Origin: Methanobacteriota archaeon
GTDB taxonomy: Archaea; Thermoplasmatota; Thermoplasmata; SG8-5; JAGLSY01
Direction: 5' to 3'
Length of the DNA: 64,000 nt
Assembly (NCBI GenBank): GCA_020696385.1
Contig: JAEHCQ010000005.1
Coordinates: 27,336-91,335, forward strand
The notes below the pieces were generated by a model. It saw only the letters and a program-made list of their open reading frames with translations. It searched no databases and had not been told where the DNA came from. Position numbers and translations under genes: made by a program. This document shows positions 867-37,606 of this stretch, piece after piece; within the stretch, counting starts at the first letter, position 1, and the number at the start of each line of letters is the position of its first letter.

Positions 867-1673
867 CTAACTGTACATCGATGGTCTTGCTGGTGTTGCT
901 GACTGCTTGGTCTTGGTCTGCTTGTGGATGAGCTTCAATTGCGATTCAATTCTTTCAGCCTCATCATACAGTGGTTTTGCATCCAGATCAATATGTAAAA
1001 GCATCTTATTGATGGTCTCTATTATCCTGGCAGCTGCTCTGGCATCAGGATAATCAGGATGTGCCTCTGCAAGTATCGTGGCGACACTGAAATCCCTTCG
1101 CCTTCCCTCATTGAGCAGAACACCCGCAACCCCGGTTATGACGCCTTCAGTGAACTCGGAGACTCCGCTTTCTTTGAGAATATCATTTGCCACTTTGGTA
1201 CTGCCAACACCGTATATCTCAAGGCCAGTGTCATCATCATCCTTCTTATCGGCCTCCACGGTCTTGCCCTCTTCATCTTCCCTGTCAATGACAAGTCCCT
1301 CTGGAGAAACGACCATCTTGCATCTCTGGTCCTCTGCCCAGTCAAGAAGTGCGCTGGCAATTGGTTTTACAAGATTTGGCGGTGGCTGGAATTCGGATAT
1401 GAAGACCACGATCTGATCTTTATTGTCATCAGAATCCCCCACTTTCTCACTGGCATATATCCGGACAGGGTTCTGTGGTTTCCCTTCACGGATCAATGAT
1501 ACCGTAGGAAAATAGACGGAATCCATTATGCCGATCTGTGTCAATTTCATTGTATTGATCAGATAGTTAGCGGCGATAGAGCTGACAAGACCAACACTGG
1601 GAAAGCCATCTATTACAGTGGCTCCTCTAACATCCGCACGCTTCAGCTCATAGATCTTAACATCTTCTGGCAT
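867..1673 (-). CDS. PAC2-family proteasome assembly chaperone
   Basis: VIDGFPSVGLVSSIAANYLI, GVITGVAGVLL, YPDARAAARII motifs. Confidence 0.88.
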   Translation of the reverse strand: MPEDVKIYELKRADVRGATVIDGFPSVGLVSSIAANYLINTMKLTQIGIMDSVYFPTVSLIREGKPQNPVRIYASEKVGDSDDNKDQIVVFISEFQPPPNLVKPIASALLDWAEDQRCKMVVSPEGLVIDREDEEGKTVEADKKDDDDTGLEIYGVGSTKVANDILKESGVSEFTEGVITGVAGVLLNEGRRRDFSVATILAEAHPDYPDARAAARIIETINKMLLHIDLDAKPLYDEAERIESQLKLIHKQTKTKQSATPARPSMYS

Positions 1674-1984: not shown

Positions 1985-2632
1985 ATGATGAGACCAGAGA
2001 TCATTGTGAACTGCGCGATGTCGGCTGATGGCAAGATCGCAGGCAGGGAACGAAAACAGGTCAAGATATCCGACCAGGCAGACTTCAAAAGAGTGCATGA
2101 ATTGAGAAATGAATGCGATGCCATTCTCATTGGCATCGGTACAGTCATTGCGGATGATCCATCGCTCATTGTCAAGGAAAAATATGTAGATGATCCAAGC
2201 CAGCCCATTAGGATTGTCCTAGATCCTAATGGCAAATGCTCGGAAGGATCACTTGTACTGGATAATACGATCGTCACCCTCATCATCACCAATGAGCAAT
2301 GCCAGCGCGAGTTCCAGGGAACCAATACCAGAAAATTATCATTCGGCAAAGATAAGGGGATCGACTTGACCCGCATGCTGGAGCATCTCTACGGTATGGG
2401 CATCAAGAAGATACTTGTGGAAGGAGGCGGGGAGACCATCTGGCATTTCTTCAAGGCCAAATGTGTTGATAGACTAAGCATCTTCGTAGGAGATATCATA
2501 ATCGGGGGCAGAACATCACCGACGCCGGTGGACGGTGATGGATTTGGTCTCGAAGAGCATGTACAACTTGTTTTCAAGAATATGAAGAGAATGGAAACTG
2601 GTATTGTTGTTGAGTATGAAATAAACTACTAG
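1985..2632 (+). CDS. arfC: 2,5-diamino-6-ribosylamino-4(3H)-pyrimidinone 5'-phosphate reductase (RibD C-terminal/Rib7 type)
   Basis: AMSADGKI, DAILIGIGTVIADDPSL, P.RIVLD, ILVEGGG motifs; no deaminase domain. Confidence 0.9.
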   Translation: MMRPEIIVNCAMSADGKIAGRERKQVKISDQADFKRVHELRNECDAILIGIGTVIADDPSLIVKEKYVDDPSQPIRIVLDPNGKCSEGSLVLDNTIVTLIITNEQCQREFQGTNTRKLSFGKDKGIDLTRMLEHLYGMGIKKILVEGGGETIWHFFKAKCVDRLSIFVGDIIIGGRTSPTPVDGDGFGLEEHVQLVFKNMKRMETGIVVEYEINY

Positions 2633-6010: not shown

Positions 6011-8620
6011 ATGTTTGGAGAGAAGTTAGCCTCACGTGCAATGAAAGTTGGAATGGTCACCATGTTATTCGTGGCCCTGATGTTCTCAGGAATGTCAGCC
6101 ATGTTCTCAACCAATCTGGATGCAGAAGCCCAGATACTCGGTGGAGAATACGGTGGAGACCTTCGCGTTGCATTGAAGGGAGAACCTAATACGTTCAATC
6201 CGCTTAGTGATTCAGCGAATGAGCCTGCAATGCAGGTAATTGATATAATGTACGATTCACTGGGACGAATCAACCCATACACATATGCGCTTGAACCATG
6301 GATAGCAGCAGGATGGGAGATAGACCCTGATGATGACAGTATAGTGACCGTAACCTTGAGATCTGATGTCAAATGGCACGATGGCTCAATGGTCACAATT
6401 GAAGATGTAGAGTACACATTCGGGCCAAGCGGTTACAATATCGCTTACATCGATACAATGACCCTGAACACACTCAACAATTCGATAACATTTGATCTGG
6501 ATGCACCAGATTCAAGGTTCTTCAGCGAGGTCATAGGCCTCAAGCTCGTTCAGGATGGATATTCAAAGACATCCACAGAAGAAATGGGCTGTGGACCTTT
6601 CTATCTTGATGCAAGTGATTCAGACAGAGTTCTTGCCTTTGATGATTATTTCAAGGGTAGAGTATATCTGGATTCCATCACATACACATACTATGATGAG
6701 AACCTGGATGCAATATATGACATAATAACAAGCAAGATCGATTTCATAGCCTGGGACCTTACTTCCAATGACACAACTTTGATGGTGGAAGTCCCAATAG
6801 GTACTGGCGACTACACTAACCTTGTGCAGGATGCAAATGTATCTGTCGAGAGAAGCAGTGGAATGGACTACTGGTATCTTGGAATGAACTGCGATGAGGA
6901 CCATGTTCTATATGAGCCTGCATTGAGAAAGGCAATAGCACATGTCATTGACAAAGCAGCACTCACCGTCTTTGATATCGGTGGTGGATTAGAGGTATCG
7001 GATTCCATTGTTAGCAAGTACAATGTTCCATGGTACAACTCAACTATCACAACCTACCCCTTCGACACAACCGAAGCAAGCAAGATCCTCAATGATGCGG
7101 ATTATTTCGATTACAATGGTGATGGATGGAGAGATATGCCAAATGGTACATCCTTCTCTTTCAAACTTCTTGGACCACATGAGCAGGACCTGACACCAAA
7201 TGTGATGGCAGGCATAGTCGCAGAATGGTTGCAGGACATAGGCATAAACACCGAGCTCGTGGCAGACACAGATGAGAACCATCTTGTCAACATAGAAGCA
7301 AATGACTTTGACATGTTCTTATTCACAGAAGAAAGAGCAAGCATTGATCCACAGTACATCGAAACAATGTACAGCCTGGATGGAATTGCTACAAGCGATA
7401 ACCTTCTTAATTTCAAACCAGTTATCGATATAGTGGATGAGTCCATCGCAGACAAGATCGACAATACCACTTATTCATGCTATCTGAACAATACCAATGT
7501 GATAGGAGATGTTGTTCTGGAGAGCAATGGAACCATCATACCAACAGGATATACAGTGGATGACGAAACTGGCATGATCACCATAGAGGCAGCTACCTTT
7601 GATGCATTGAAACTTGAACAGGGATTGAATGTTTCATATTCATATCTCCCATTCGACCATTTAATGAGTCTCGCCAATGCACAGATGGATCCAGCAATGA
7701 GGTCAAAATACATTATGGAAACACAGGCATTGATCGCAGACTTCATGCCTTCAATACCATTATTCTCATTCCGTGTGAACCATGCTTACAACAGCTCTGG
7801 TTTCATAGGATGGACCAAAACCCTTGGTGGCGTCAATAACTTCTGGTCATTCATCAATCTCAGGAACCACATGAATGAAGGAGGCATGGGCGTGTCTATC
7901 AGCCTTCCACTTGCAGTATCAGATGATGGTATGCTTGGTGGAGAGGAGATCAATCTCCAGATCAAGGTCGAGGATATTGATGGAAACCCATTGAACATGG
8001 CAGACATTGTTCTGAGCGGAGAGGGAACCTTTGGTACCCCAGCTTATGATGTAGGTACAGGCAGTTACACTGTCTCGTACATGGCTCCAGATATCGAGAG
8101 CACACGCACTATCACCATAGTCGCAAGTGCATCAAAGGTATCATACGGCGGAGGCCAGGGTGAGATCGATGTAACCATCAGATCATTGACAAATGATTTC
8201 ACAATAGAGGTCAGTAAAGAAGAGAGCTCCATACCATCGAACAATGCCACAACGATAAGCTATCTGGTTCTGGACAGGACAACAAAGGCAGCCGTAGCAG
8301 ATGCGGATGTCACATTGACCATAACACCAACAGGACTTGGCGGATATCTGTCAGAGTACAGTGGTGTAACAGACAGTAGTGGAGAGTTCATCGTCACCTT
8401 TGGCGCAGACAATGTGACCATCGATACCACCTTCAGTATCTCAATAGAGGTAACGAAGGATTCCTACAATGCAGCAACAAAATCAACAAGCATCAATGTA
8501 GTGAAGATGGATACAGAAGCACCGGACGATGGATTACTGGGTCTCCCAGCACCATCACTGATCCTGGTACTGATCGCATTTGCTGGTCTTGCCCTTATCG
8601 TAAGGGGCAGGAAACAGTAG
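6011..8620 (+). CDS. Family 5 ABC substrate-binding protein with C-terminal Ig-like domains and membrane anchor
   Basis: Signal peptide; EPNTFNPL, VKWHDG..VTIEDVEYT, MGCGPF, ALRKAIAHVIDK; C-terminal TM plus RGRKQ. Confidence 0.85.
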   Translation: MFGEKLASRAMKVGMVTMLFVALMFSGMSAMFSTNLDAEAQILGGEYGGDLRVALKGEPNTFNPLSDSANEPAMQVIDIMYDSLGRINPYTYALEPWIAAGWEIDPDDDSIVTVTLRSDVKWHDGSMVTIEDVEYTFGPSGYNIAYIDTMTLNTLNNSITFDLDAPDSRFFSEVIGLKLVQDGYSKTSTEEMGCGPFYLDASDSDRVLAFDDYFKGRVYLDSITYTYYDENLDAIYDIITSKIDFIAWDLTSNDTTLMVEVPIGTGDYTNLVQDANVSVERSSGMDYWYLGMNCDEDHVLYEPALRKAIAHVIDKAALTVFDIGGGLEVSDSIVSKYNVPWYNSTITTYPFDTTEASKILNDADYFDYNGDGWRDMPNGTSFSFKLLGPHEQDLTPNVMAGIVAEWLQDIGINTELVADTDENHLVNIEANDFDMFLFTEERASIDPQYIETMYSLDGIATSDNLLNFKPVIDIVDESIADKIDNTTYSCYLNNTNVIGDVVLESNGTIIPTGYTVDDETGMITIEAATFDALKLEQGLNVSYSYLPFDHLMSLANAQMDPAMRSKYIMETQALIADFMPSIPLFSFRVNHAYNSSGFIGWTKTLGGVNNFWSFINLRNHMNEGGMGVSISLPLAVSDDGMLGGEEINLQIKVEDIDGNPLNMADIVLSGEGTFGTPAYDVGTGSYTVSYMAPDIESTRTITIVASASKVSYGGGQGEIDVTIRSLTNDFTIEVSKEESSIPSNNATTISYLVLDRTTKAAVADADVTLTITPTGLGGYLSEYSGVTDSSGEFIVTFGADNVTIDTTFSISIEVTKDSYNAATKSTSINVVKMDTEAPDDGLLGLPAPSLILVLIAFAGLALIVRGRKQ

Positions 8621-8645
8621 ACCGTGGAAAGGATATCAAAAATAA

Positions 8646-8670
8646 TGGGGCAGCTCGAAAGGCTGCCCCA
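8646..8670 (+). terminator. Hairpin terminator after the SBP gene
   Basis: TGGGGCAGC/GCTGCCCCA stem followed by a T-rich tract. Confidence 0.7.
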
Positions 8671-8775
8671 ACTTTTGCTTTTATGTTTTATCTGATGGAG
8701 CTTGCTCATTCAATTTGTTAGGTTGGGTGTGGAGGTGTGTCGTTTCCATTTGTTAAGACGGGTGTGGATAAAGAC

Positions 8776-9011
8776 ACCCCGCCCCTGCTTTGATCGAGGC
8801 GGGGCTTTATTTGACTCCTCGCATTGAGAGAGCGAGGTGTTTATCTTTTTGCAAGGTCATCGCTACTGTCACTCACTGAGAAAATAAAGAGAATACCCCG
8901 CCCTTGCGTCCCTCAGGATTGCTCCGTCTGGCAAATATAATAGAATGACTTCGCAACCTTCGAAATTCTGGATACTCTATCGAATATAGAACGAATTTCT
9001 TCAGGCGGGGC
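8776..9011. repeat. Two GC-rich inverted-repeat units with the same arms and different loop sizes
   Basis: ACCCCGCCC(C/T)TGC...AGGCGGGGC at 8776-8805 and 8895-9011. Confidence 0.7.
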
Positions 9012-9090
9012 ATGTTCGTACAGTTCTACTGATGAAATGATAATATCATACCATGTTAAAATTATCCAATTGATGAAAAATTGAAAAGGT

Positions 9091-9115
9091 CTGTCGGGCT
9101 TTGAAGGCCCGACAG
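9091..9115 (-). terminator. Hairpin terminator after saccharopine dehydrogenase
   Basis: CTGTCGGGC/GCCCGACAG stem; T tracts follow on the minus strand. Confidence 0.7.
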
Positions 9116-9147
9116 TATTCTTCTACTTGAGATATGAATTGATAGTT

Positions 9148-10464
9148 CTACTCATATCTCTCGATGAACTTGATACCTATGGTCTCGAGTTCATCCATGC
9201 ACGGCTCGTAGATGTTCTTCGTAACAGGAACATGAACACCAGGTTCTGTTATCTTTCCCTTTAAGATCATCTTCACACCAATCGCTGCAGGCAGTCCAAC
9301 AGTCCTCGCAATGGATGTGTCGCCATCAGGAATACCAAAGTCAAGGAAAGTGGAGGTTATCCTCTGCTTCTCGCCATCTGCCTTCACGGTGAGGAACTCG
9401 TGGAACATTACGATCATGTCTCTCTCTCCATCTCCAAGCTCCATCCTATCGAGTGATATGACATTGAGATGGTCGATCGGTGTATTTGCTCCATTTGGCA
9501 ATGGCCTGTCACTGAAAAGACCAAGCCATTTCATCCTCTTAATAGCGGTCGCATATGGTGTCAATCCAAGGAATTTAGCAGTTGCAGCCTCTGCGTCTGC
9601 ATCTGTTGAACCGATCAGATGGCGGGTGACATCAGCGTATGTTGAGCCATTGAGGCCAGTCAGCTCATCCTCTCCAAGCCAACCAAGGGCCATGACATTG
9701 CGCATTGTCTCGCACCATCCAGTCATACGGAATGTACCTCTGTAAACGGTCTCCGCGTCCCTGAGACCGTATATCTCCTTGTATGGTACGGAATCTCTGT
9801 TAGGGTAGTTCTCGAAAGCCCCCACGCCAGGGACATCGATGATATCATAATTCTCGAACAATTGCTCACCAGGATACTTCCGGACTTGGCCATTCTCCAG
9901 CCACTGGGAGGCATTCTTCGATGCGAGCAGAACTCCTCTGGGCGCCCATGAGAACTTGTAGCCAAATGGATTATTATTGGCCTCAAATGCCTGAAGCGCG
10001 CCTGTTGTGGATCTGAAGGATAATATCTTTCCGCCATTTTCCTGCACTTCATTGATTATCTTCATTGCGGACATGTGATCGATACCGGGGTCCAGTCCGA
10101 TCTCATTGAGAATTACAACGCCAGCTGCTTTTGCTTCTGCATCCAGTGCCTTCATCTCCGCGCTAACGTAGGATGTGGTGACCATGTGCTTCTTGTGTTT
10201 GATGCACAATTTGGCGACCTTGACATGGAAGACATATGGAAGAAGGCTGACAGAGACATCGTGCTTCGCAACCTGCTCTTCCAGGAGCTCGTCCTGGTCA
10301 GCAGTAAGAGCCATAGGGGTTCCATCTGGATGACCCGCGATTATCCTCTCGGCCTTGCTCACGGTCCTGCTTGCAACAGTTACCGTAACATTCTCTTGAT
10401 CCAATAAATACCTTACAAGGGGCGGGGCCACGGAGCCTGCTCCCAATACCAATACAGATGCCAT
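9148..10464 (-). CDS. Saccharopine dehydrogenase (glutamate-forming, SDH/Lys9-like)
   Basis: VLVLGAG, VSLLPY.FH, VTTSYVS, NEIGLDPGIDHM, NPFGYKFSWAPRG, YPNRDS..Y, RTVGLPAAI. Confidence 0.92.
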   Translation of the reverse strand: MASVLVLGAGSVAPPLVRYLLDQENVTVTVASRTVSKAERIIAGHPDGTPMALTADQDELLEEQVAKHDVSVSLLPYVFHVKVAKLCIKHKKHMVTTSYVSAEMKALDAEAKAAGVVILNEIGLDPGIDHMSAMKIINEVQENGGKILSFRSTTGALQAFEANNNPFGYKFSWAPRGVLLASKNASQWLENGQVRKYPGEQLFENYDIIDVPGVGAFENYPNRDSVPYKEIYGLRDAETVYRGTFRMTGWCETMRNVMALGWLGEDELTGLNGSTYADVTRHLIGSTDADAEAATAKFLGLTPYATAIKRMKWLGLFSDRPLPNGANTPIDHLNVISLDRMELGDGERDMIVMFHEFLTVKADGEKQRITSTFLDFGIPDGDTSIARTVGLPAAIGVKMILKGKITEPGVHVPVTKNIYEPCMDELETIGIKFIERYE

Positions 10465-10588
10465 TTATTCACCTCATTCGCGGCTCTCATCAAGGAGAAC
10501 CGTATTGAGAAGGGATGATAGATTCAGGCTACAAATATGTATCTATATAGTAGTGACATATAAGGAAAAAAAGTGCCATTAATAGATA

Positions 10589-11035
10589 TCATAAAGATAC
10601 AATATTGTCATAGAATTCATTGTATGAGGACATGGTCAATTTGGCAAAAGGATCACAGGACCTGTAATTGTTCAGGAAGTCATTTACAATGTCCTCGGCA
10701 GTGGTCTCGGAGACCGTCAGGATCTGGTCTCCGTTCTTAAGCTCCTGCTTCTTCGTTACCATATCACCATTTCTAAGATACTGGCTTATTGAATACAGGA
10801 TGGTTTTATTGTCATCCATAACAAGCTCGTATTTCAGTTCGAGCTTGTTCTCATTGGATGATATGGTAATGGATGCCTGGCTCTCCGTTATATTTGTGAT
10901 GATCAATTTATCATGCCTCTCTAGCTCTTCCTTTAGGTCATTGAAGGCGAGGCTGGCTATCTCCAGGAAATAACTTTGCTCAATTTCCAGGGACTGCTTG
11001 GCGGAATAACTCATCAAAGCATTATTGATTTTCAA
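10589..11035 (-). CDS. Hypothetical protein
   Basis: 148-aa ORF co-oriented between LKR and SDH; no motif recognised. Confidence 0.55.
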   Translation of the reverse strand: MKINNALMSYSAKQSLEIEQSYFLEIASLAFNDLKEELERHDKLIITNITESQASITISSNENKLELKYELVMDDNKTILYSISQYLRNGDMVTKKQELKNGDQILTVSETTAEDIVNDFLNNYRSCDPFAKLTMSSYNEFYDNIVSL

Positions 11036-12684: not shown

Positions 12685-13203
12685 ATGGAATGTCGTGGAT
12701 CTGTTATTTTGGGCTATTTCAAATACATAAAAAAGACATGGGGTCAGCTTGGCGAAGATGAATGTGCTAAAGCTGTTGGCCTGGGTCCTGGCAAGGTCAA
12801 AGAAGCCATATGGTATGATATACGATACAGTGAGAACATACTGGAATGGATATACAAGAACAAAGGTGAAGAAGCGGTTGTCAACTGCGGCACATACACC
12901 GTGAAGGATCTAGGGTTCCTATCATACATTGTCAGATTTGCCAATGTGAAAAAGATAATAGGGCGCGCATCGGAAAGCCATAAGGATGCTTTCAAAGGTG
13001 ATGGCTCCCTCAAGGTGGACATTAAGGACAATAGCGCACTGATAACAATGAAGAACACTGCGATAAGCAAATATTCCTGCCTGGCCTGGAGAGGATGTTT
13101 TATCGGCGCACTGGAGATGACGAACACAACCGGCACTGTAATAGAAAAGCAGTGCCAGCTAAAAGATGCGGACCATTGCGAATTTATTATGGAATGGTCC
13201 TAG
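12685..13203 (+). CDS. V4R-domain protein
   Basis: C-terminal GALEM...VIEKQCQLKDADHCEFIMEW typical of V4R domains. Confidence 0.7.
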   Translation: MECRGSVILGYFKYIKKTWGQLGEDECAKAVGLGPGKVKEAIWYDIRYSENILEWIYKNKGEEAVVNCGTYTVKDLGFLSYIVRFANVKKIIGRASESHKDAFKGDGSLKVDIKDNSALITMKNTAISKYSCLAWRGCFIGALEMTNTTGTVIEKQCQLKDADHCEFIMEWS

Positions 13204-13389
13204 CCACTGCAAATTTGTCATAGAGTGGGTCTGACCATTGCGAATTTATTATGGAATGGTCCTAGCCACTGCAAATTTGTCATAGAGTGGGTCTGACCAT
13301 TGCGAATTTATTATGGAATGGTCCTAGCCACTGCAAATTTGTCATAGAGTGGGTCTGACCATTGCGAATTTATTATGGAATGGTCCTAA
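13173..13389 (+). repeat. Tandem array of seven 31-bp units alternating A-B-A-B-A-B-A (62-bp period)
   Basis: A = ccattgcgaatttattatggaatggtcctag (the V4R gene end); B = ccactgcaaatttgtcatagagtgggtctga; 21/31 identical. Confidence 0.95.
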
Positions 13390-13433
13390 AAAGCCAAACA
13401 AATTAATTTTATACACTACCACCATCCCGTCCC

Positions 13434-13529
13434 ATGAATGTAATTGACCTTGTAGCCGAGCTTGTTTCTATACCCAGAGCACACCCACTTTTTTCTTTTA
13501 AACCTCGCTGTGCTGGATCGGGCTCCTAA
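13434..13529 (+). pseudogene. Truncated 5' fragment of the M20 peptidase (MNVIDLVAELVSIP then 17 unrelated codons)
   Basis: First 14 codons identical to the intact gene; stop at 13527-13529. Confidence 0.75.
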
Positions 13530-13680
13530 ATCAAGCCCATTTCATGTGCTTGATAAAATAGATGCGTGGACTTTGTCCACATCTAAAAAAGAAAAAAGAC
13601 GGACAAATTAAATCAAGCCAGCTGACTTGATCAAAATAAATGCGTGGGTTCAGTAGGTGAAGTCGCATTTAAAAAGAAAG
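13527..13680. mobile_element. Two tandem copies of a double-hairpin dispersed module (third copy at 31476-31568, opposite strand); mobility inferred
   Basis: AATCAA(G/A)C..loop..(G)(C/T)TTGAT-AAAA(T/A)A(G/A)ATGCGTGG..loop..C(GC)AT(C/T)TAAAAA. Confidence 0.6.
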
Positions 13681-13775
13681 TCGCCCGACCCTGCTCACTC
13701 GGTATTGATTGAACCGTAGATTAGTAAATGAGTAAATAAGCAAAATAATTCTATATCCTAGTGCTATTCAACCCC

Positions 13776-14852
13776 ATGAATGTAATTGACCTTGTAGCCG
13801 AGCTTGTTTCTATACCCAGTACACTTGGAAAGACCACGGATATCGAGAACTTCGTGGCTGGCCAGTTATCCGCAATTATCGATACAGAGTTCATCGAGGT
13901 CCCGGGCAAGGGCAGGTGCGTGCTTGCCCGTTCTATCGCGGATGATAAAAAGCCGACCATAATCTTCAATGGGCATCTGGATACTGTCGAGGTGTGCAAT
14001 GGGTGGACAAAGGATCCCTTCAAGCCAGTGATCGAAGGCGATAAGATGTTCGGCCTAGGAACCGCTGACATGAAAGGCGGAGTGGCAGTTGCCATGCTGG
14101 CATTTCAAGAAGCTGTAAGAAGAGGCATCAATGCGATATTTGTCGGGACCATTGATGAGGAAGGAGATTCGGCGGGTGGCTTTGCTATCAAGGATCTGGG
14201 ACTAAAAGCAGATCTGTGCCTGATAACAGAACCCAGCAATGAGAAGATAATGCAGGGCTGTCGCGGCAGGTACGTGGTGGATGTGAACGTGAGCGGAAAG
14301 AGCGCTCACGGAGCTGTGCCCGAGAAAGGGGTCAATGCGATCACAGAGGCTGGCCGCCTGCTCTCCAGATTGGATGAGTTACCCCTAATTCATCATGATG
14401 TTCTGGGAAAGGGTTCCGTATGCCCACTCAGCGTGGGTGGAGGAACCACCACATTATCGGTTCCGGAAGAATGCCGCATTGTCATCGACAGGCATGTTGT
14501 CCCAGGCGAGACAAAGGAAAGTGTGATGCAGGACATACGCAACCTGGCTGGGAAGATAGACAGCCAGGCGACATTCGATGTGGCACTGAACCAGGAAAGA
14601 CCCACACCTTTCCTGGAGCCATATATCACGCAGGATGATGAATTGACGCGCCGATTCATCAGCACAGTCAAAGGCGATATCGCCTACGGGAAGTCAGTAG
14701 GCGATTACAATATATTTGCCACCATGTGCCCCACGATAGTCCATGGGCCAGTAGGGGAGAATTGGCATTCACCAGATGAGTGGGTGTCTATTTCTTCAAT
14801 AGAAAGATGTCTGGAGAACTACATGAGATTCCTTGATGCTTTCAAGGTCTAA
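13776..14852 (+). CDS. M20 family metallopeptidase/deacylase (ArgE/DapE-like)
   Basis: FNGHLDTV, GLGTADMKGG, DEEG, ITEPS, GKSAHGA, HSPDEWV. Confidence 0.92.
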   Translation: MNVIDLVAELVSIPSTLGKTTDIENFVAGQLSAIIDTEFIEVPGKGRCVLARSIADDKKPTIIFNGHLDTVEVCNGWTKDPFKPVIEGDKMFGLGTADMKGGVAVAMLAFQEAVRRGINAIFVGTIDEEGDSAGGFAIKDLGLKADLCLITEPSNEKIMQGCRGRYVVDVNVSGKSAHGAVPEKGVNAITEAGRLLSRLDELPLIHHDVLGKGSVCPLSVGGGTTTLSVPEECRIVIDRHVVPGETKESVMQDIRNLAGKIDSQATFDVALNQERPTPFLEPYITQDDELTRRFISTVKGDIAYGKSVGDYNIFATMCPTIVHGPVGENWHSPDEWVSISSIERCLENYMRFLDAFKV

Positions 14853-16601: not shown

Positions 16602-19600
16602 TTAATTTTTAAATTTCTTAATGTTTATAAGATACATTTCCTCAGTCAAATTACCATCTTTGTAAGCCATCTCTATTTTATCTATGATCTCTTGATTAGG
16701 ATGAGGTGGCTCAGGCTCAATTGCCAGATCATCAGCACAGATCGGGCATTGTAGGCCTGGATCGATCAGGAAACCACAAACTGGGCAGATATTTTCGACC
16801 TCAGTTGCTTGTTCTTCGTATAGATCATCTTCAGATGATACATCTTCATCAAATGAGGCGTCATCTTCGACAGGTCCATCATCTTTATTTTTACGAACAA
16901 ATAGGAATGCCAGGAACAATAATATAATGAGCCAGATCAACATCCCGATGTATATCATCGGGTCTTGGTCCTTTGACACATATTCCTCTACCCCATCTTC
17001 TGTTTCATCCAGGGGAGCAGGGTCAAATTCATCGAGTACTCCGTCATTGTCATCATCAGTGTCTTCATTGTTACCAATGCCATCCCCATCAGTATCTATT
17101 GATTCATCAGCATCAAATGGGAAAACATCATCAATATCTGGAACTCCATCATTGTCATCATCAGGGTCATCCACATCAAGTATACCATCTCGATCATTAT
17201 CTCCATGAACAACAATGATCTCAATTGTCGAGTTTATATTACCGGAATAATCTTCGACCGTGAAAGTGATACGATAAGTTCCAGGGTCTTCAAAGATATA
17301 TGATATATCATTTTGATAATTATCCAGATGACCTGGATAATCAATTGACCAATAACTATTTGCAATTCCAATATTGTCTGTTGAATTTGATCCCCAGAGA
17401 TATGTTGTTTCTCCTTCGATCGTCTCTCTAGGAACATTAATGTCAATATTTGGCTTGGTTGTATCAACTACAAAAAATAGATCTGCATTCATCGGAGGGG
17501 ATTCTTGATTGCCAGATATATCCTCTGCGATAGAATAGAATTGATACCAACCATCATTTGGTGCATTGGCCTCAACATCATAATAATATGAAGGCGTATA
17601 GTTCCATTTTGCATATGTGAAATTATTATGCTCATATTTCCAGTCAGACCAGGTTATATTATCCGCACTGTACCTTGACCATAGGCTTATGCTCTCATAA
17701 TAATAATGTACGGCATAAGAATAATTGATATTGACCATTGTGTTCTGCAAACCACTTGTTGAATCAGTAGCACTCCAAGAAAAATATAGATCCCCAAGAT
17801 CATGCCAGAAATCTTCTTGAAAGGATAGCTTAGACACAGGATCTGAAGTATCAATACAAAGAGATATGGGTGGTTCAGAAGGGGATTCTTCATAATTCCC
17901 TACTACATCACGTGCTACAGAATATAATTGATAGAAGCCATCATTACTTGGCATTTTAAAAGACCAACTACCATTATTTTCCTCCGCATACCTATGTGAA
18001 AAATAATCAGTCCATGTTAGATTGTCAGAGCTACGCCTATAATAAATATTAATTTGATCCAATCCAGTCAAATTATCATGAGCATCGATTGATAGATTAA
18101 ATGAACCATTGTTATGATAATATGGTACAGGAATTATCTCTGAGCTTGGATTCAGGGTATCACGAATAGTCTTTGTCTCTGAACTATTTTTACATATCTC
18201 AAAATTCCCATAATTGTCCTCAGATAAAGAATAGAACTCATAATATCCATCACCTTCAGGGAAGTCAAAAAGCCAATTCCATTGTGAGATAGAATCCTCA
18301 TTATATTGTTTCCAGGGAGTCCATGTAATATTAAATGAGCTATGGCGATACCATAATGTAACATTCTTAAGGCCAAATCCATCCAGATCCTCTGCGGTAG
18401 AATTTATAAGTTCAGACTGAGAGTTAATATATCTGGGAATCGATCGTAAAGATGATGTTGGTTTGATATGATCGTGAACTGGGTTCATCAGTGAATAATT
18501 ATCACTACTAAATGCGGGATAAGAATCGATATCATATCCCGAATCACCGAATCCATCTGAACCGGATATATTCTGACCCGGACCAGACATCAGATCTAAG
18601 CCATCATAGTCCGACCAGTAATTTCCCCCGATCGGGTATATGTTATTCCAATAATTTGTTGAATAATAATCATAGGCACCATAATTATTATCTAAAAATG
18701 AATTATGATAGACCATGTTCCAATCTGAATGAGAGAACATTAAGCCTCGAAAGTTATTCCATATTGTATTGTTGATTATAAAATTATTAAAACAATCATA
18801 TAAATATATCCCATAATATCCATAATTATATGGATACCCATTCCCATGTATCAAATTATTAGATATGGATGAATTTCTCGTACTTTCCATGCATATCCCA
18901 TAATATTCATTTTCTATCGTATTGTTTTGTATTGTAATATTATTCGAATAACCAGCTAATATCCCACAGGATCCATCCATTAATGTGAAGTTCTGAATGA
19001 TCGAATCTGAACAATTCGCTAAAATGATCTGACCTGCATCAGATGGTATATTAACATCAGTTTGGTTTTTAAGATAATATATTGGCAACCCATTGATAGT
19101 ATTATTGATGAATGAATGAGTATTCCAATCCAATATAATATCATTATACCAGTATCTAATCATGATTCCAGTATTTATCAGAACATTGTCTTGGATCAGT
19201 ATATATTTATTGCCGCGGATACCTATACCGACATCATAGTTATCTATTGAATTATTTATTATACTATTATTATTCCCCGGTTTCATAGTGATTCCAGTAT
19301 CCCTTGTTCCAGAAAAGATATTGTTCTGTATTATGTTTCTATCACCCTGGCCTTCGATGGAGGTTTCCATAAAAAGGTTATTTTCAATTACATTATCATT
19401 ACCAGTGAATGAGACACCTCGATAACTATTATGAGCGATCTGGTTATTTACCACAGTATTATTATTCCCAGTAATAATCACTGCGTCCTCTTGATCATAG
19501 AGCTTATTATCAAATATCATAAAATTATCTGAGTTGAAAAGTTGAATTCCATTGGAACAATTCTCAATTACAATATCATTGATCTGACCATTTGTACAGA

Positions 19601-20459
19601 ATCCTAGAATGATGCTGCCGTATGTCTCTGTAAAAGTATAATTGGAGAGCACGACATTCTTGCAATCTGCATATATTATCTGGCCTGGACCAGTTACATA
19701 AGGAGGGGTGTTAGTGTTCTTGAAATAATATATCGGCAACCCTTGAACTAAATTTGTGGTGTAAATATAATGAGTATCCCATTCTTCGACTAAGGTTCCA
19801 TAGATATGAATTCCATTGCTAAGGATATTACCTGAAAATGTATTGTGTTGGGATCGCAACATACGGATATCATCCCAATTGTTGATACTCCACCAATAGG
19901 GAGAAATATGAGTCTCAATCTGATTATTGATGATCAAATTGTAATTGCTTCCATCTAGGAACAATCCATAATATACCGAACTAATTTGATTGTTTTCAAT
20001 AAGGTTATGATCTGAATGAACAGATAGATATATCCCTCTGCTGCAATTATGGATAATATTATTGATAATATCACCATAATCAGTATTCCATAGTTGAATC
20101 CCAGCAGCTTCCCAATATAATCCACTCCAATTAGAATAAGGAAACATCAATGTACAATTTCGGATAATGAAGTTATCTGTCACGTTCCCCAAGTAAATGC
20201 AGGGTCCAAAAATGGTTCCATTGATCTCCCAGTTCTCGATCACCCAGGGATTGCCAGCACTCCCATTCCCACTAGATACTCCATTAGCAAGGGTAAAATC
20301 AGCATTTGAATTTATTCGGATCTCACCGCGAGGTGTAGTTGTAATCACATATGTAGACACATCCTTGGCTTCCGTATTATTAGCATTTGGTTCGGTAAAT
20401 AATATGATGGAACTAAATATCAATAGTACCGATAGCCAAACAGTAAATGCCTTTCTCAT
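16602..20459 (-). CDS. Large cell-surface protein: NosD/PbH1 beta-helix repeats, Ig-like/PKD domains, TSP3-like Ca repeats, TM, Zn ribbon
   Basis: Signal peptide; Asn/Ile-rich NN.I.NN repeats, GGNYWSDY; DNDRDGILD..D.DDDNDG repeats; TM; CPVC..CPIC. Confidence 0.85.
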   Translation of the reverse strand: MRKAFTVWLSVLLIFSSIILFTEPNANNTEAKDVSTYVITTTPRGEIRINSNADFTLANGVSSGNGSAGNPWVIENWEINGTIFGPCIYLGNVTDNFIIRNCTLMFPYSNWSGLYWEAAGIQLWNTDYGDIINNIIHNCSRGIYLSVHSDHNLIENNQISSVYYGLFLDGSNYNLIINNQIETHISPYWWSINNWDDIRMLRSQHNTFSGNILSNGIHIYGTLVEEWDTHYIYTTNLVQGLPIYYFKNTNTPPYVTGPGQIIYADCKNVVLSNYTFTETYGSIILGFCTNGQINDIVIENCSNGIQLFNSDNFMIFDNKLYDQEDAVIITGNNNTVVNNQIAHNSYRGVSFTGNDNVIENNLFMETSIEGQGDRNIIQNNIFSGTRDTGITMKPGNNNSIINNSIDNYDVGIGIRGNKYILIQDNVLINTGIMIRYWYNDIILDWNTHSFINNTINGLPIYYLKNQTDVNIPSDAGQIILANCSDSIIQNFTLMDGSCGILAGYSNNITIQNNTIENEYYGICMESTRNSSISNNLIHGNGYPYNYGYYGIYLYDCFNNFIINNTIWNNFRGLMFSHSDWNMVYHNSFLDNNYGAYDYYSTNYWNNIYPIGGNYWSDYDGLDLMSGPGQNISGSDGFGDSGYDIDSYPAFSSDNYSLMNPVHDHIKPTSSLRSIPRYINSQSELINSTAEDLDGFGLKNVTLWYRHSSFNITWTPWKQYNEDSISQWNWLFDFPEGDGYYEFYSLSEDNYGNFEICKNSSETKTIRDTLNPSSEIIPVPYYHNNGSFNLSIDAHDNLTGLDQINIYYRRSSDNLTWTDYFSHRYAEENNGSWSFKMPSNDGFYQLYSVARDVVGNYEESPSEPPISLCIDTSDPVSKLSFQEDFWHDLGDLYFSWSATDSTSGLQNTMVNINYSYAVHYYYESISLWSRYSADNITWSDWKYEHNNFTYAKWNYTPSYYYDVEANAPNDGWYQFYSIAEDISGNQESPPMNADLFFVVDTTKPNIDINVPRETIEGETTYLWGSNSTDNIGIANSYWSIDYPGHLDNYQNDISYIFEDPGTYRITFTVEDYSGNINSTIEIIVVHGDNDRDGILDVDDPDDDNDGVPDIDDVFPFDADESIDTDGDGIGNNEDTDDDNDGVLDEFDPAPLDETEDGVEEYVSKDQDPMIYIGMLIWLIILLFLAFLFVRKNKDDGPVEDDASFDEDVSSEDDLYEEQATEVENICPVCGFLIDPGLQCPICADDLAIEPEPPHPNQEIIDKIEMAYKDGNLTEEMYLINIKKFKN

Positions 20460-20530: not shown

Positions 20531-20788
20531 ATGCGGGGAACCGTGTGAACGATATGCCCTTGGCATGATGTTCACATCGTAGGCCATAAACCCAATTCTC
20601 GAAGCTTACGTCTTGCTTCGAGTCCAGATGAAACATAATGGTGGGTTTACGGCAACCGTTTACTACTTTCGAATCCTATAATGAAAAATGCGGGGAACCG
20701 GATTTCGCACCTACACTTCATTGCGGTGCTCTCTCGAATTTACAAGTAAATTCTCGATCGAACTTCGTTCGAATCCTATAATGAAAAA
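20531..20788 (-). mobile_element. Two tandem structured units (157 and 100 bp), each ending in a copy of the tRNA-Leu 3' end; mobility inferred
   Basis: 37-bp exact repeat at 20668-20704 and 20768-20804; 13-bp copy at 20531-20543; several internal hairpins. Confidence 0.75.
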
Positions 20789-20872
20789 TGCGGGGAACCG
20801 GATTCGAACCGGCGAATCACTAAGAACTAGACCCTGAATCTAGCGCCGTTGACCAGGCTTGGCTATCCCCGC
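20789..20872 (-). tRNA. tRNA-Leu (CAG)
   Basis: GCGGGGATAGCC...CTAGA-TTCAGGG-TCTAG...GGTTCGAATCC...CCCCGCA; long variable arm; CCA not encoded. Confidence 0.95.
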
Positions 20873-20970
20873 ATGGTGTTATGGATAAGCCCTGTAAATT
20901 CAAGAGGTTTATAAAATCTTTGATTGGATTGTATAATTTTCCGCCGATATCCTTATATCATGAAATTATC

Positions 20971-25738: not shown

Positions 25739-26851
25739 TTGGTTCCAGGCTCCAAAAAAAGGCTAATCACCATGTTATTGTTGATGGTGATCGTTTTCAG
25801 CATAGGTAATCTTATCTTCAATGTTGAGAGACTGGACATGGGCGACGAGATAATTCTAGATAACCCAGAAGCAGAGGGAGGGGGATCGTACATAGCCTCC
25901 AGCAGCACGATGGCCGAAACTGTCAGATACATGATGATAGGATTCATGGCCATCGGGATCATCATAACCATAGGCGGTATCGTCTATGGCACAGCCACCA
26001 AAGACAAGGAATTCATGAAATCCATCATGTATCCTCTGATAGGTGGTGGGTTGGCAATCCTGCTCATTGTTGGAACATTCGCCTATCTGGAGATCGAGAA
26101 GAGTGAATACACCCAGAATGAGCTTCTGGAAGAAGGCTATACATCATCCAATAGCACAGGAGGCTCTGGAAATTACACAGAGCCATCAAATGTGAAGCCA
26201 GACGGCATGGACATGGCAGTATCTGTTATGTTGGCCATAGGGGCTGTTGCGGGGATAGCTATTGCCATATTCGCCATCAGCCAGATAACCCAACTCAGAA
26301 CTGAATCTTTATCTGGAATAGATATGGAAGCAATGACCGAAGAAGTGGGGCAAACCATCCAGAAAGCGATGGACGATATGACGAGTGGGACTGATGTCAG
26401 ATCGTCCATAATGAGATGTTACAGTGATATGTGCAAGCTGGCGTCCAAGCATGGCATTTCCGATGAAGAGCATCTGACACCCCGTGAATTTGAATCAATG
26501 GTCGGCTCCAGGCTTCCCATAGAAGATGAGAAATTACATGATCTTATACTGATATTCGAGGAAGCCAGATACAGCGACCATGATCTGTCAGAAGAAATGC
26601 GTAATAAGGCCATTATCGCCCTTGGCAGCATAAAGGACGATCTTGTGATCGAGGAAGAAATAGATATAGAGACAGTAGATGAGATTGAGAAAGTGGATGA
26701 CAAAAAGGTAGAGAAGGATAAGAACAAGAAAATAGAAACGGAGAAGAACAAGAGGATAGAGGGGGAGAAAGACAAGGAGAAAGAGAATGACGATGATCAC
26801 GACACGCCCTCGGTCGTGATGATCCAGGTAGGTGATGATAATGGCAAATAA
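25739..26851 (+). CDS. DUF4129-type membrane protein of the MoxR operon
   Basis: Three to four TMs; RCY..M, HLTPREF, LIFEEARYS; charged low-complexity tail. Confidence 0.8.
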   Translation: MVPGSKKRLITMLLLMVIVFSIGNLIFNVERLDMGDEIILDNPEAEGGGSYIASSSTMAETVRYMMIGFMAIGIIITIGGIVYGTATKDKEFMKSIMYPLIGGGLAILLIVGTFAYLEIEKSEYTQNELLEEGYTSSNSTGGSGNYTEPSNVKPDGMDMAVSVMLAIGAVAGIAIAIFAISQITQLRTESLSGIDMEAMTEEVGQTIQKAMDDMTSGTDVRSSIMRCYSDMCKLASKHGISDEEHLTPREFESMVGSRLPIEDEKLHDLILIFEEARYSDHDLSEEMRNKAIIALGSIKDDLVIEEEIDIETVDEIEKVDDKKVEKDKNKKIETEKNKRIEGEKDKEKENDDDHDTPSVVMIQVGDDNGK

Positions 26852-27536
26852 TAATGAAGCCGCTCTTGACAGATCATCATATGTTTCCACACACGTGGAG
26901 ATCACACCATCCGATACCTTGAAACTTGTTGAGGGAAAGCTGATAGGCGAGAGTTTGCTTGGGCCTACTGGCATTAGGGAATTGTTCATCAATGCCCTGG
27001 TTCTCGTGTTCTATCTGGTCCTGCTTTCTATTCCATTTGTTTCATTTGCCTTTGTCAGTGGGGGGATGAGGTGGATAATTGTTGTCATGGTGGTGACAAC
27101 AATCGCCCTCTACACTGTCTATGTTATGAACATGGGCATCCAGAAGAAGGCATGGAAAAAGACGATCATGGAAAAGAAATACTTCTCGGGTGATCTTTCA
27201 CGAGCGAATGACATAATCACAAGGGGAGCTGGCGGATATAGCTACAGCCAGCAGTTGATGAGAGAGATGATGGCGGAAGCCATGATAGAGAAGATCAGAC
27301 TGGGAAGAGGAATGACCACCAGAGAGATCGAGATGGCCATTGATGAGCCTGAAAGATTCAGGGATATCGTTGATGATGAGATTATAGCGACCTTCATACT
27401 GGCCAATCAGAAAAAGGCAGAGGGATGGAGCGATAGGATCTCCCGAAAGAAGAGTGATCGGGAGAAGACCGAGAGCGGTCGTAAATTCATGTTAGAGATC
27501 AAAGATATATTAGAAAGAGTGGAGGACTGGGAGTGA
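26832..27536 (+). CDS. Membrane protein of the MoxR operon
   Basis: Two TMs; overlaps both neighbouring genes. Confidence 0.7.
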   Translation: MMIMANNNEAALDRSSYVSTHVEITPSDTLKLVEGKLIGESLLGPTGIRELFINALVLVFYLVLLSIPFVSFAFVSGGMRWIIVVMVVTTIALYTVYVMNMGIQKKAWKKTIMEKKYFSGDLSRANDIITRGAGGYSYSQQLMREMMAEAMIEKIRLGRGMTTREIEMAIDEPERFRDIVDDEIIATFILANQKKAEGWSDRISRKKSDREKTESGRKFMLEIKDILERVEDWE

Positions 27537-31304: not shown

Positions 31305-31398
31305 ACTGCCAGATATCCTGAAAATTTCCATAGATATTATGCACAAATCTAAACCAAGCTTTTATTATGGGTATTGCATTCTCGATAAAATTACCAAA

Positions 31399-31473
31399 GG
31401 GCGCGTAGCCTAGCCAGGATATGGCGCTAGCCTTCTAAGCTAGAAGCCAGGGGTTCGAATCCCCTCGCGTCCG
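31399..31473 (+). tRNA. tRNA-Arg (TCT)
   Basis: GGGCGCG/CGCGTCC acceptor stem, CTAGC-CTTCTAA-GCTAG anticodon arm, GGGGTTCGAATCCCC T arm. Confidence 0.95.
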
Positions 31474-31700
31474 CTCTTTTATTTTTTTAAGATGCGACTT
31501 TATCATTTGATCCCACGCATCTTTTTTATCAAACAAATTTGTAAAAGATTCAGGTAATGAGTTTGATTCGATATGTTTAGAGGACGCGAGGTGGATGAGA
31601 ACGGAGTTCGACGAGATTTTTCTGAATATAATGAAGAAAAAGCGAGCAAGACCTGGATGCTGAAAGCAGACAGGTTGCTGATCCCCTCGCGTCCGCTCTT
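31474..31700 (+). mobile_element. 222-bp structured unit ending in a direct copy of the tRNA-Arg 3' end; mobility inferred
   Basis: atcccctcgcgtccgctctt at 31459-31478 and 31681-31700; inverted degenerate copy from 31582; double-hairpin module at 31476-31568. Confidence 0.75.
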
Positions 31701-31796
31701 ATTTTATTATCTTAATAAATGCGAAGTGTTGTAAACAAAACACTTATCTATTCTCTTTTGATTACTATACTATAGTTAATCCAGGGATGGACCTTA

Positions 31797-37316: not shown

Positions 37317-37427
37317 TCAGTAACGAGCCAGCGCCCTGGATCCACATTCGGGACATTTGCCCATGCCACTGATGTATTCCTTCCAATTATTGCGCATCCA
37401 TGTATGTTTACATTTTAGACATTTCAT
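37317..37427 (-). CDS. 36-aa zinc-ribbon microprotein (below the ORF-track cutoff)
   Basis: MKCLKCKHTWMRNNWKEYISGMGKCPECGSRALARY; TATA-like ttatatata about 30 bp upstream. Confidence 0.75.
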   Translation of the reverse strand: MKCLKCKHTWMRNNWKEYISGMGKCPECGSRALARY

Positions 37428-37571
37428 AGTATCATATTCAAAGTTATGTATATTCTTATATATAAGGATGGCTTGGGAATTCCCAGATGTACCCACTGAT
37501 GTATTCCTTCCAATTATTGCGCATCCATGTGTGTTTACATTTTAGACATTTCATAGTATCATATTCAAAGT
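37366..37571. repeat. 79-bp direct repeat (37366-37444 and 37493-37571; one mismatch) covering the microprotein leader and first 21 codons
   Basis: Offset 127 bp; the mismatch is a synonymous CAT/CAC. Confidence 0.93.
37456..37554 (-). pseudogene. Chimeric or truncated second copy of the microprotein (32 aa, only one CxxC)
   Basis: MKCLKCKHTWMRNNWKEYISG followed by YIWEFPSHPYI. Confidence 0.6.
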
Positions 37572-37578
37572 AAAATTT

Positions 37579-37606
37579 ATGAAAGGCCAGTTATCTGGCC
37601 TTTCAT
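37579..37606 (-). terminator. Hairpin after pycA
   Basis: ATGAAAGGCCAG/CTGGCCTTTCAT perfect 12-bp stem. Confidence 0.7.

Follow-up and report, generated by a model that had tools for sequence, protein, structure and literature searches.

Structured RNAs that are released by processing at transfer RNA (tRNA) genes include the tRNA-microRNA-encoding RNAs of gammaherpesviruses and the bacterial 3' external transcribed spacer small RNAs (sRNAs). Additional copies of a tRNA 3' end are, as a rule, interpreted as the dead remains of large viruses or plasmids that once integrated. Archaeal integrated elements commonly leave partial tRNA genes behind as scars (PMC9897764), and the T-loop/T-stem is named as the usual sublocation of elements that integrate in tRNA genes where that source cites Williams 2002 and Reiter 1989 (PMC9897764). 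In bacteria, tandem accretion of integrase-less, att-flanked elements of kilobase size, the cis-mobilizable elements (CIMEs), has been documented (PMC5704250). Casposons are found in tandem at a tRNA-Leu gene of Methanosarcina mazei, with a 14-bp duplication beginning with CGCA, and also at a tRNA-Pro gene of Aciduliprofundum (PMC4779613). Lastly, integron cassette arrays with folded single-stranded attC sites are known, also in Archaea (PMC9668308). Here we analysed a 64,000-nt stretch of contig JAEHCQ010000005.1 (hereafter the window) from an uncultured Thermoplasmata archaeon, in which a tRNA-Leu gene is followed by two different non-coding cassettes, units A and B, each closed by a copy of the tRNA 3' end.

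This arrangement is genuine and goes beyond chance, the initial annotation described it accurately, and its reading as an accretion of cassettes fits the comparative data. We propose, with a probability of about 0.5, that the array is made of non-autonomous, att-flanked insertion cassettes at the tRNA 3' end, which would be moved by a recombinase acting in trans and would encode or form a structure under selection.

A tRNA-Leu gene followed by two different cassettes

The tRNA-Leu(CAG) gene (20872..20789, minus strand) is intact, as detected with ARAGORN and Rfam RF00005 (49.6 bits), and it is 100% identical between the window and the genome of a close relative, L001. A TATA-like box, TTTTATAAA (20908..20916, minus strand), located approximately 40 nt upstream, is its putative promoter judging by the letters. 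Homologous ATTTTACAGG regions precede the tRNA-Leu genes of the relatives L002, L011 and L033, and the box moves together with the tRNA gene where the block is inverted in relatives.

The last 12 nt of the tRNA, positions 62-73 (CGGTTCCCCGCA; 20800..20789, minus strand), make up the core that is copied at each cassette end. The 13-mer CGGTTCCCCGCAT, which the initial annotation had placed at the tRNA and at +100 and +257 bp, indeed occurs three times in the 64 kb, on the minus strand at 20788-20800, 20688-20700 and 20531-20543, hence with spacings of 100 and 157 nt. Only 0.04 copies are expected by chance, and none of 100 shuffled sequences contained three. Similarly, none of 20 tRNAs on unrelated phage contigs, used as a control, had a downstream copy of its own last 12 nt. 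The two other repeats reported at the outset were found as well. The 37-bp exact repeat (20668-20704 and 20768-20804) is part of a 43-nt repeat with 95% identity, and the perfect 10-bp inverted repeat (20767..20809) consists of GTTCGAATCC in the tRNA T-arm (20809..20800, minus strand) and GGATTCGAAC in the cassette (20776..20767), separated by a 23-nt spacer that comprises the core and a T-run.

Unit A (100 nt; 20689..20788, minus strand) starts with a T-rich leader and GGATTCGAA (20788..20768), followed by three hairpins inside a short closing stem and by a 16-nt tail, AATCCGGTTCCCCGCA (20704..20689, minus strand), which is identical to tRNA positions 58-73. Unit B (157 nt; 20532..20688, minus strand) is composed of a 21-nt leader (20688..20668), a body predicted to form a three-way junction and a 12-nt tail, CGGTTCCCCGCA (20543..20532). 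The two units open with the same 21 nt, TTTTTCATTATAGGATTCGAA. In all genomes, every unit behind tRNA-Leu carries at its start the motif GGATTCGA, or its variant GGATTCAC in L002, which is complementary to the tRNA T-loop. The identity between tail and tRNA begins in the T-loop/T-stem, at A58 for unit A, at C62 for unit B and at A59 for the tRNA-Arg cassette described below, and the unit boundary reads ...ACGGTTCCCCGCA followed directly by TTTTT. Each internal core is followed by a fresh leader and GGATTCGA, and the last core of every array by the local flank. Thus, each unit carries the core at its own 3' end.

The layout is identical in L010, a contig from an independent metagenome-assembled genome (MAG), and the stack is therefore no assembly artefact. 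It does not have the make-up of a CRISPR array, as there are only 2-4 cores and the 'spacers' are 63-200 nt long, folded and conserved between species. The description of the locus as a tRNA-Leu gene with a tandem stack of two different structured, non-coding cassettes, each closed by the tRNA 3' end, is borne out.

Variation in unit number among relatives

We fetched the same locus from other genomes using the neighbouring M48 peptidase as an anchor, and relatedness is given as the amino acid identity of that protein to the window copy. The sequence covered amounts to ~80 kb of the window's genome and ~30 kb of that of its closest relative. No unit is present in L011 (84% identity), where the peptidase gene begins 60 nt after the tRNA. 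L003 (82%) and L033 (75%) have one B-type unit each, and L002 (85%) has, besides one B-type unit, ~50 nt from the start of another. The window and L010 (100%) harbour units A and B, while L001 (95%) harbours A, B and a third, B-like unit C with an extra 80-nt module. The locus is thus not an invariant single-copy one, with 0, 1, 1 plus a fragment, 2 or 3 units across MAGs.

L002 and L011 form a pair of filled and empty sites. In L011, the tRNA is followed by TATGTTTTTATTTT; in L002, it is followed by a 171-nt unit that ends in the core and then by CTCTGTTTTTATTTT. The two genomes share the gene order, and the flank TGTTTTTATTTT after the last core is common to both. The boundaries of the insert are precise, as found for att-flanked elements, and the tRNA 3' part flanks the insert as a direct repeat (cores of 12-16 nt) while the tRNA gene remains complete.

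Unit A was found only in the window, L001 and L010, always between the tRNA and unit B, and it is absent from L002, L003, L011 and L033. In distant genomes, B-type units directly adjoin the tRNA, and they were found down to 75% M48 identity. This distribution fits the idea that the newest unit is the tRNA-proximal one and that unit B would be evolutionarily older. The polarity proposed in the initial annotation is consistent with the position of unit A and its restriction to the closest genomes, a pattern based on a single insertion event, that of unit A; the sequential accretion that it also proposed is read from presence and absence among genomes.

The tails follow sequence changes in the tRNA. 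Pair 3:70 of the acceptor is A-T instead of G-C in L003 and L033 (C70 to T70), and the unit tails of these genomes, CGGTTCCCTGCA, likewise read CCCTGCA. Insertion may have copied the tail from the tRNA, or tail and tRNA end may be kept alike.

An orphan B-type cassette was identified in L003 (8303-8440) with covariance model R1 (23.9 bits). It is intergenic, has no tRNA next to it and lies 4.7 kb from the tRNA-Leu locus. It is AT-rich (35% G+C), its helix P1 is broken and eroded, and its tail has decayed to ATTCCCCATA, which is still tRNA-Leu-like. These features suggest neutral decay of such a unit and a cassette that carries its own core and tail.

Pattern scans of genomes and metagenomes yielded no members of the family beyond those fetched via neighbouring proteins, and the contigs that extend the window (L035 and L036) contain no further tRNA and no further copies of the modules. 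In the SG8-5-type relatives (L012-L014, L032, L034 and L037), the linkage between the tRNA and the M48 gene is lost.

Signs of structural constraint in the units

The unit B hairpins listed in the initial annotation are present in the predicted fold, which has a minimum free energy of -49.8 kcal/mol (z = -3.99) and is as stable in none of 200 shuffles. Helix P1 pairs GCCGTAAACCCA (20653..20642) with TGGGTTTATGGC (20594..20583) and encloses both P2, formed by CTCGAAGC (20622..20615) and GCTTCGAG (20605..20598), and a conserved unpaired AGCTAAAC-like motif; P1 and P2 together span 20583..20653. Helix P3 (20545..20575) has an outer stem, GTGAAC (20575..20570) with GTTCAC (20550..20545), and an inner stem, ATGCC (20566..20562) with GGCAT (20558..20554), separated by a symmetric ATC/ATC internal loop. 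All these positions are on the minus strand.

We counted covariation in an alignment of six B-type units over four helices, P1, P2 and the two parts of P3. Standard pairs occupy 95.6% of the cells, and 15 of the 31 pairs have changed on both sides, in a set of only six related sequences with a structure derived from one of them. By helix, both sides have changed in 5 of 12 pairs of P1 (97% of cells pair), 3 of 8 of P2 (100% of cells pair), 4 of 6 of the outer stem of P3 and 3 of 5 of its inner stem. None of 500 column shuffles reached the observed values of pairing and double-sided change. When the partners were shifted by 1-3 columns, only 22-40% of the cells paired and between 0 and 2 pairs had changed on both sides. 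Lineages differ in the leaders and in most of the primary sequence of the units, but the units can still be aligned where the intergenic DNA around them has diverged beyond alignment. With a covariance model based on these six sequences, unit B of the window scores 131 bits.

On the tRNA-sense strand, G-T wobbles outnumber A-C mismatches by 9 to 2. As six of the nine wobbles represent one invariant pair, this excess only weakly favours folding of that strand. Altogether, unit B appears to be kept by structural constraint through compensatory changes, and the alignment argues for bodies held by selection as a folded tRNA-sense strand. The initial annotation had considered the distal copy to be shorter and more decayed. 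Its tail is indeed shorter (12 vs 16 nt), but decay is not what we found: unit B, probably the older one, is structurally conserved with compensatory changes, and the tail is exactly 12 nt long in all six B-type units.

Unit A alone folds little better than shuffled sequences (z = -1.16). It differs from its L001 counterpart at 4 positions, which correspond to a compensatory change of a C-G to a T-A pair in hairpin 2 and to two loop bases. Between the window and L001, nucleotide identity is 96% for unit A and 90.5% for the body of unit B, compared with 86-87% for the M48, FtsY and Zip coding sequences and 86% for the region upstream of the tRNA.

These observations bear on the possibility that the units are non-functional debris, namely attR scars of deleted large elements or products of slippage or template switching near a structured, heavily transcribed gene, with hairpins maintained only by quasi-palindrome correction. 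Scars of this kind are common in the form of partial tRNA genes (PMC9897764). Nevertheless, the pairing and the two-sided changes of the B-type units persist where the flanking intergenic DNA has become unalignable, unit A has changed less than the coding genes beside it, and a truly decaying copy, the L003 orphan, looks different, with its broken P1 and 35% G+C. The bodies of A and B also differ, which means that they are not slippage copies of each other.

No family match was obtained for the units with the Rfam 15 covariance models at E values up to 10 or 1, and ARAGORN detected no tRNA-like gene in them; the only tRNAs that it found in the window are tRNA-Leu and tRNA-Arg. The units contain no conserved open reading frame (ORF). 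Their short ORFs, of at most 49 residues, are not credible as coding sequences since the substitutions follow the helices. Elsewhere in the window, sub-threshold Rfam matches to the archaeal C/D-box sRNAs sR43 (19 bits) and sR51 (22 bits) were obtained at 26767-26821 and 27369-27408, inside coding regions, and are probably due to chance.

A related cassette behind tRNA-Arg and a dispersed 5' module

The only other tRNA gene of the window, tRNA-Arg(TCT) (31399..31474, plus strand; detected with ARAGORN, and with Rfam at 65.7 bits), is also followed by a cassette, a parallel that the initial annotation does not mention. This 223-nt unit (31475..31697, plus strand; z of the fold = -4.68) comprises a T-run, an 81-nt 5' module (31490-31570) and a folded body, and it ends in ATCCCCTCGCGTCCG, which is the tRNA-Arg 3' end. 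In the body, a closing helix of 10+4 bp is predicted between GGACGCGAGGTGGAT (31582-31596) and the tail ATCCCCTCGCGTCC (31681-31694), with internal hairpins enclosed. GGACGCGAGGTGGAT is the reverse complement of the 3' strands of the tRNA-Arg acceptor and T-stem. We saw no bulge-helix-bulge motif at the boundaries of the unit when inspecting them by eye.

A homologue of the Arg cassette is found in L028, which belongs to the L001 genome (10787-11052 region). It has no 5' module and starts with GGGCGCTAGGTGGATTCGAACAGGGTTCGATGAGA. It has in common with unit A of the Leu locus the sequence GGATTCGAAC-N3-GTTCGAT-(C)GAGA and the three-hairpin layout. Judging from these shared motifs, the cassettes behind the two tRNAs are related, and the tail of each matches the tRNA that it follows. 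In a more distant genome (L030), tRNA-Arg has no unit. A tail matching another tRNA-Arg acceptor in L029 (6860-6970) was discarded, as it is a scaffolding artefact, in which a 100-N gap of an ENA scaffold has duplicated tRNA-Arg 3' ends on its two sides and mimics a cassette; the NCBI contig of the same genome, L030 (2190-2230), has no unit there.

The 5' module is composed of a T-run, a hairpin (AGATGCG-N19-CGCATCT), ATTTTATCAA and a second hairpin. It occurs at three loci: in the Arg cassette (31490-31570), in unit C of L001 (L001 5557..5476) and at 13.5-13.7 kb of the window. At the latter locus, two modules stand in tandem (13521..13684, minus strand; detected with blastn and with nhmmer at E values of 2e-19 and 5e-15). 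They are flanked by an 87-nt direct repeat of the promoter and first 16 codons of an M20 peptidase gene, at 13396-13482 and at 13738-13824, the latter being the real gene start. The repeats of the end of a V4R gene, the 87-nt M20 copy and the two modules make up a 543-nt insertion (13198-13740) that is not found in L001 (compare L001 1813-1833). A closing helix in the M20 cassette was also considered and rejected (z = -0.46). In metagenomes, a 20-mer of the 5' module gave 13 matches, all of them devoid of the hairpin context and thus attributed to chance.

Other repeats were observed in the window. Positions 13171-13388 contain 3.5 tandem copies of a 62-nt unit, itself made of two diverged 31-nt copies of the end (last 29 nt and stop codon) of the V4R-like gene that lies upstream (12685-13203). 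In L001, this gene end is present once and there are no repeats. At 37366-37580, an 88-nt direct repeat (94% identical copies, 127 nt apart, with a 39-nt insert between them) covers the promoter of a small zinc-ribbon gene encoded on the minus strand, together with its first ~20 codons (MKCLKCKHTWMRNNWKEYISG...). Another tandem repeat, of two 80-nt copies with 73% identity, is present at 1723-1884, in the divergent intergenic region of the ORFs at 867-1673 (minus strand) and 1985-2632 (plus strand).

Genomic context and rearrangements

The host is an uncultured Thermoplasmata archaeon of marine sediments or cold seeps, and the sequencing runs that share sequence words with the window are sediment and seep metagenomes. 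Its relatives are MAGs labelled Thermoplasmata, one of them Proteinoplasmatales SG8-5. The tRNA-Leu gene is preceded by a gene for an M48/HtpX peptidase. Beyond unit B are found the genes for a 1285-residue NosD/beta-helix protein and then for FtsY. The NosD/beta-helix/PKD surface-protein gene (16602-20459, 3.9 kb) has a G+C content of 0.33-0.41, compared with ~0.45 for the window, and no counterpart in L001. It is probably acquired cargo at this hot spot. At the same place, L001 has 608 nt with a small membrane ORF and unit C, and L003 codes for a secreted protein of 408 residues. L002, L011 and L033 have nothing beyond the array.

The block that comprises the promoter, tRNA-Arg and its cassette (window 31356-31706) is inverted in L028, from a relative with 95% average amino acid identity. 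The tRNA-Leu block has one orientation in the window, L001, L010 and L033 and the other in L002, L003 and L011. The initial annotation does not mention these inversions either. No inverted repeats were found at the breakpoints of the inversions. Integrase-driven inversions beside tRNA-borne att sites are described for Thermococcales (PMC5495485). L001 also has insertions with no counterpart in the window, of 3.1 kb downstream of the M48 region (7495-10650) and of 0.67 kb near an AlaDH-like gene (492-1165).

Possible nature of the cassettes

The anatomy of the locus, its variation in copy number, the pair of filled and empty sites, the covariation, the tails that match the tRNA and the recurrence of the design at a second tRNA are the observations on which our proposal of trans-mobilized, att-flanked cassettes is based. 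A cassette would consist of a T-rich leader, the GGATTCGA motif, a folded non-coding body and a 12-16-nt copy of the tRNA 3' end, that is, the 3' strands of T-stem and acceptor plus the discriminator base. In circular or otherwise free form, it would recombine via its core with the identical core in the tRNA gene, by conservative site-specific recombination as in elements that integrate at the tRNA T-loop/3' end, catalysed by a recombinase encoded elsewhere. After insertion, the tRNA would be intact and the cassette would end in a second core. The next cassette would usually enter at the tRNA itself and push the older ones outward, and excision between two cores would restore the empty site. 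If the crossover occurs 5' of position 70, the two cores would alternate as the real 3' end of the tRNA and be under the same selection, such that changes in the acceptor stem would recur in the tail. For the body, one possibility is a small RNA that arises by read-through or from a start in the leader and has its 3' end at the core and oligo-T; another is a folded, attC-like recombination site.

Variable copy number, an empty site, identity that starts in the T-loop/T-stem, modules at different targets and matching tails make site-specific insertion the most economical explanation. Several points weigh against it. We found no recombinase gene among the annotated genes of ~11-39 kb of the window, which include ~8 kb around tRNA-Leu and the region towards tRNA-Arg, and no larger autonomous relative in the IMG/VR, phage and plasmid collections, in which elements of this lineage may be missing. 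No match was obtained when viral sequences were scanned for the leader of the units, the type-A hairpin, the 5' module or either tRNA 3' end. Searches with blastn of units A and B against phages and plasmids were likewise negative, as was a metagenome scan for a tRNA end followed by a unit and a core. Three IMG/VR matches with two cores 135-165 nt apart (L007-L009) turned out to be unrelated, one being a giant-virus tandem repeat and two the terminators of jumbo-phage tRNA arrays. None of the indexed sequencing runs contained the units of the window or of L001. Cores of 12-16 nt are short for att sites of archaeal integrases, an example of which has 44 bp (PMC9897764), and RNA-like covariation is not expected of ordinary att arms. 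B-type units are always at the same tRNA-Leu, for which vertical inheritance of a functional RNA gene is an equally good explanation. The simple model does not predict that 87 nt are duplicated at the M20 gene or that entire tRNA-cassette blocks are flipped. Units of 100-230 nt, with no gene, short cores and above all a selected secondary structure, fit the ordinary picture of such elements poorly.

The main rival explanation is that the units are tRNA-linked non-coding RNA genes that arose by partial duplication of the tRNA, are transcribed with it or from TATA-like leaders and serve the cell. We regard this as a possible, if unlikely, account, and it is compatible with insertion cassettes if a mobile cassette encodes the RNA. 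With a tRNA-identical 3' end followed by oligo-T, such an RNA would use tRNase Z and CCA addition, and RNase P as well in units with an acceptor-like helix, of which the Arg cassette is an example. The helix that closes the Arg cassette reproduces the tRNA-Arg acceptor and T-stem minihelix, followed by the discriminator base and a T-run, but the Leu units have no 5' acceptor strand. A T-run follows every core, and several leaders resemble the TATA box of the tRNA itself; this leader box is absent or misplaced in L033 and in unit B of the window. The strong covariation in B, the compensatory or loop-only changes in A, the wobble excess on the tRNA-sense strand and the tails that track the acceptor change in L003 and L033 are all in keeping with RNA genes, and so is the persistence of B-type units at one locus down to 75% identity of the neighbouring protein. 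Nevertheless, the units resemble no Rfam family or tRNA in the searches described above, and L011, which has none, shows that they are dispensable. Furthermore, homologous bodies behind two tRNAs, dispersed 5' modules and the duplication at a protein gene point to DNA mobility rather than to local gene birth.

A second alternative, which we consider doubtful, is a tRNA-anchored cassette system akin to integrons, in which the tRNA 3' end would act as attI and each cassette would be hardly more than a structure-specific recombination site, with a recombinase encoded elsewhere that captures, stacks, flips and releases the cassettes. In the folded strand, pairing between the core and an inverted copy inside the cassette would recreate the tRNA end as a duplex. 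Such pairs can be written as GGACGCGAGG.GGAT with ATCC.CCTCGCGTCC in the Arg cassette and as GGATTCG with CGGTTCC in the Leu units. The pairing of the Arg core with an internal inverted copy, which mimics the duplex target, fits the idea of a folded recombination site. The small promoter-like 5' module and the variable surface-protein genes would then ride along.

Quite improbable in our view is cut-and-fill transposition, by a casposase (Cas1-like) or another transposase, with staggered cuts at the tRNA 3' end and a core that represents a fresh target-site duplication. The cores of 12-16 nt are close in length to casposon duplications, and tandem arrays that share one duplication are known (PMC4779613). 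A copy made from the target would automatically match the tRNA variant of each host, and the B-type tails are always of exactly 12 nt. However, the length of the duplication varies from 12 nt (B-type) and 16 nt (A) to 15-20 nt (tRNA-Arg) and 87 nt (M20 gene), and the units have no terminal inverted repeats, as they begin with TTTTTCATTATAGG... and finish with ...ATCGTTCACA. No Cas1 or PolB is encoded among the neighbouring annotated genes. The orphan of L003 keeps a tRNA-Leu-like tail at a site with no tRNA, which speaks for a tail that belongs to the cassette. Finally, even with the other gene-end duplications of the window (13171-13388, 13396-13824 and 37366-37580), the small inversions around both tRNAs and the variable, low-G+C cargo beyond the array that L001 lacks (NosD gene), all of which could be expected of debris, we hold a non-functional origin to be very improbable given the structural conservation of the units.

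Mobility of the cassettes proposed here as att-flanked insertions would make them the smallest integrating units of the att type described, and they would provide, in a lineage of uncultured archaea, a tractable case of a recombination substrate or small RNA that hitch-hikes on tRNA genes. As RNA genes, they would constitute a new family of tRNA-linked RNAs whose end is borrowed from the tRNA itself. In either case, they may serve as a strain-typing marker, and they give reason to re-examine the 'tRNA fragments' of archaeal genomes. What lies between the copies here is 100-230 nt of non-coding DNA, whose shape appears to be kept by compensatory mutation over at least family-level divergence, whose number of units varies between close relatives and whose design recurs at a second tRNA.

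Comparison with known systems

As in the tRNA-linked structured RNAs of herpesviruses and bacteria, stable hairpins come directly after the tRNA and in its orientation, and tRNase Z could set their ends. To our knowledge, in those systems the downstream RNA has no copy of the tRNA 3' end and its copy number does not vary, and we know of none in archaea.

With casposons, the cassettes share an archaeal host, the tRNA 3' end as a target, short duplications (14-15 bp in casposons) and tandem arrays in which neighbours share one duplicated segment (PMC4779613). In contrast with them, they have no terminal inverted repeats and no Cas1 or PolB among their neighbours, they are a hundredfold smaller, and the duplicated length varies.

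The resemblance to integrons resides in a polarized array with the newest unit beside a fixed site, in a putative recombination site at the 3' end of each cassette and in the conservation of that site in structure more than in sequence. In the Arg cassette, the core and its internal inverted copy can form a stem that mimics the duplex target, as attC sites do. Unlike integrons, the locus has no IntI among its annotated neighbours (M48 peptidase, NosD-like protein and FtsY), no GTTRRRY core, no R''/L''/L'/R' layout and no ORFs in its cassettes, and the anchor is a tRNA 3' end instead of attI.

The CIMEs and other tRNA-integrated elements come closest. In both cases, the insert lies between direct repeats of the tRNA 3' end and the tRNA is regenerated intact; the block of identity starts from the T-loop/T-stem, several units may be present per tRNA, empty and filled sites exist, and a unit may have no integrase of its own (PMC5704250, PMC9897764). 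Here, however, the inserts are of 100-230 nt rather than kilobases, have no genes and are flanked by cores of only 12-16 nt. They hold a motif complementary to the target tRNA, and neither an autonomous parent nor an integrase was found in the searches made. Furthermore, these inserts are not decaying but conserved, with compensatory changes, over family-level divergence. The array is thus best filed as a miniature, structurally constrained variant of att-flanked insertion at tRNA genes.

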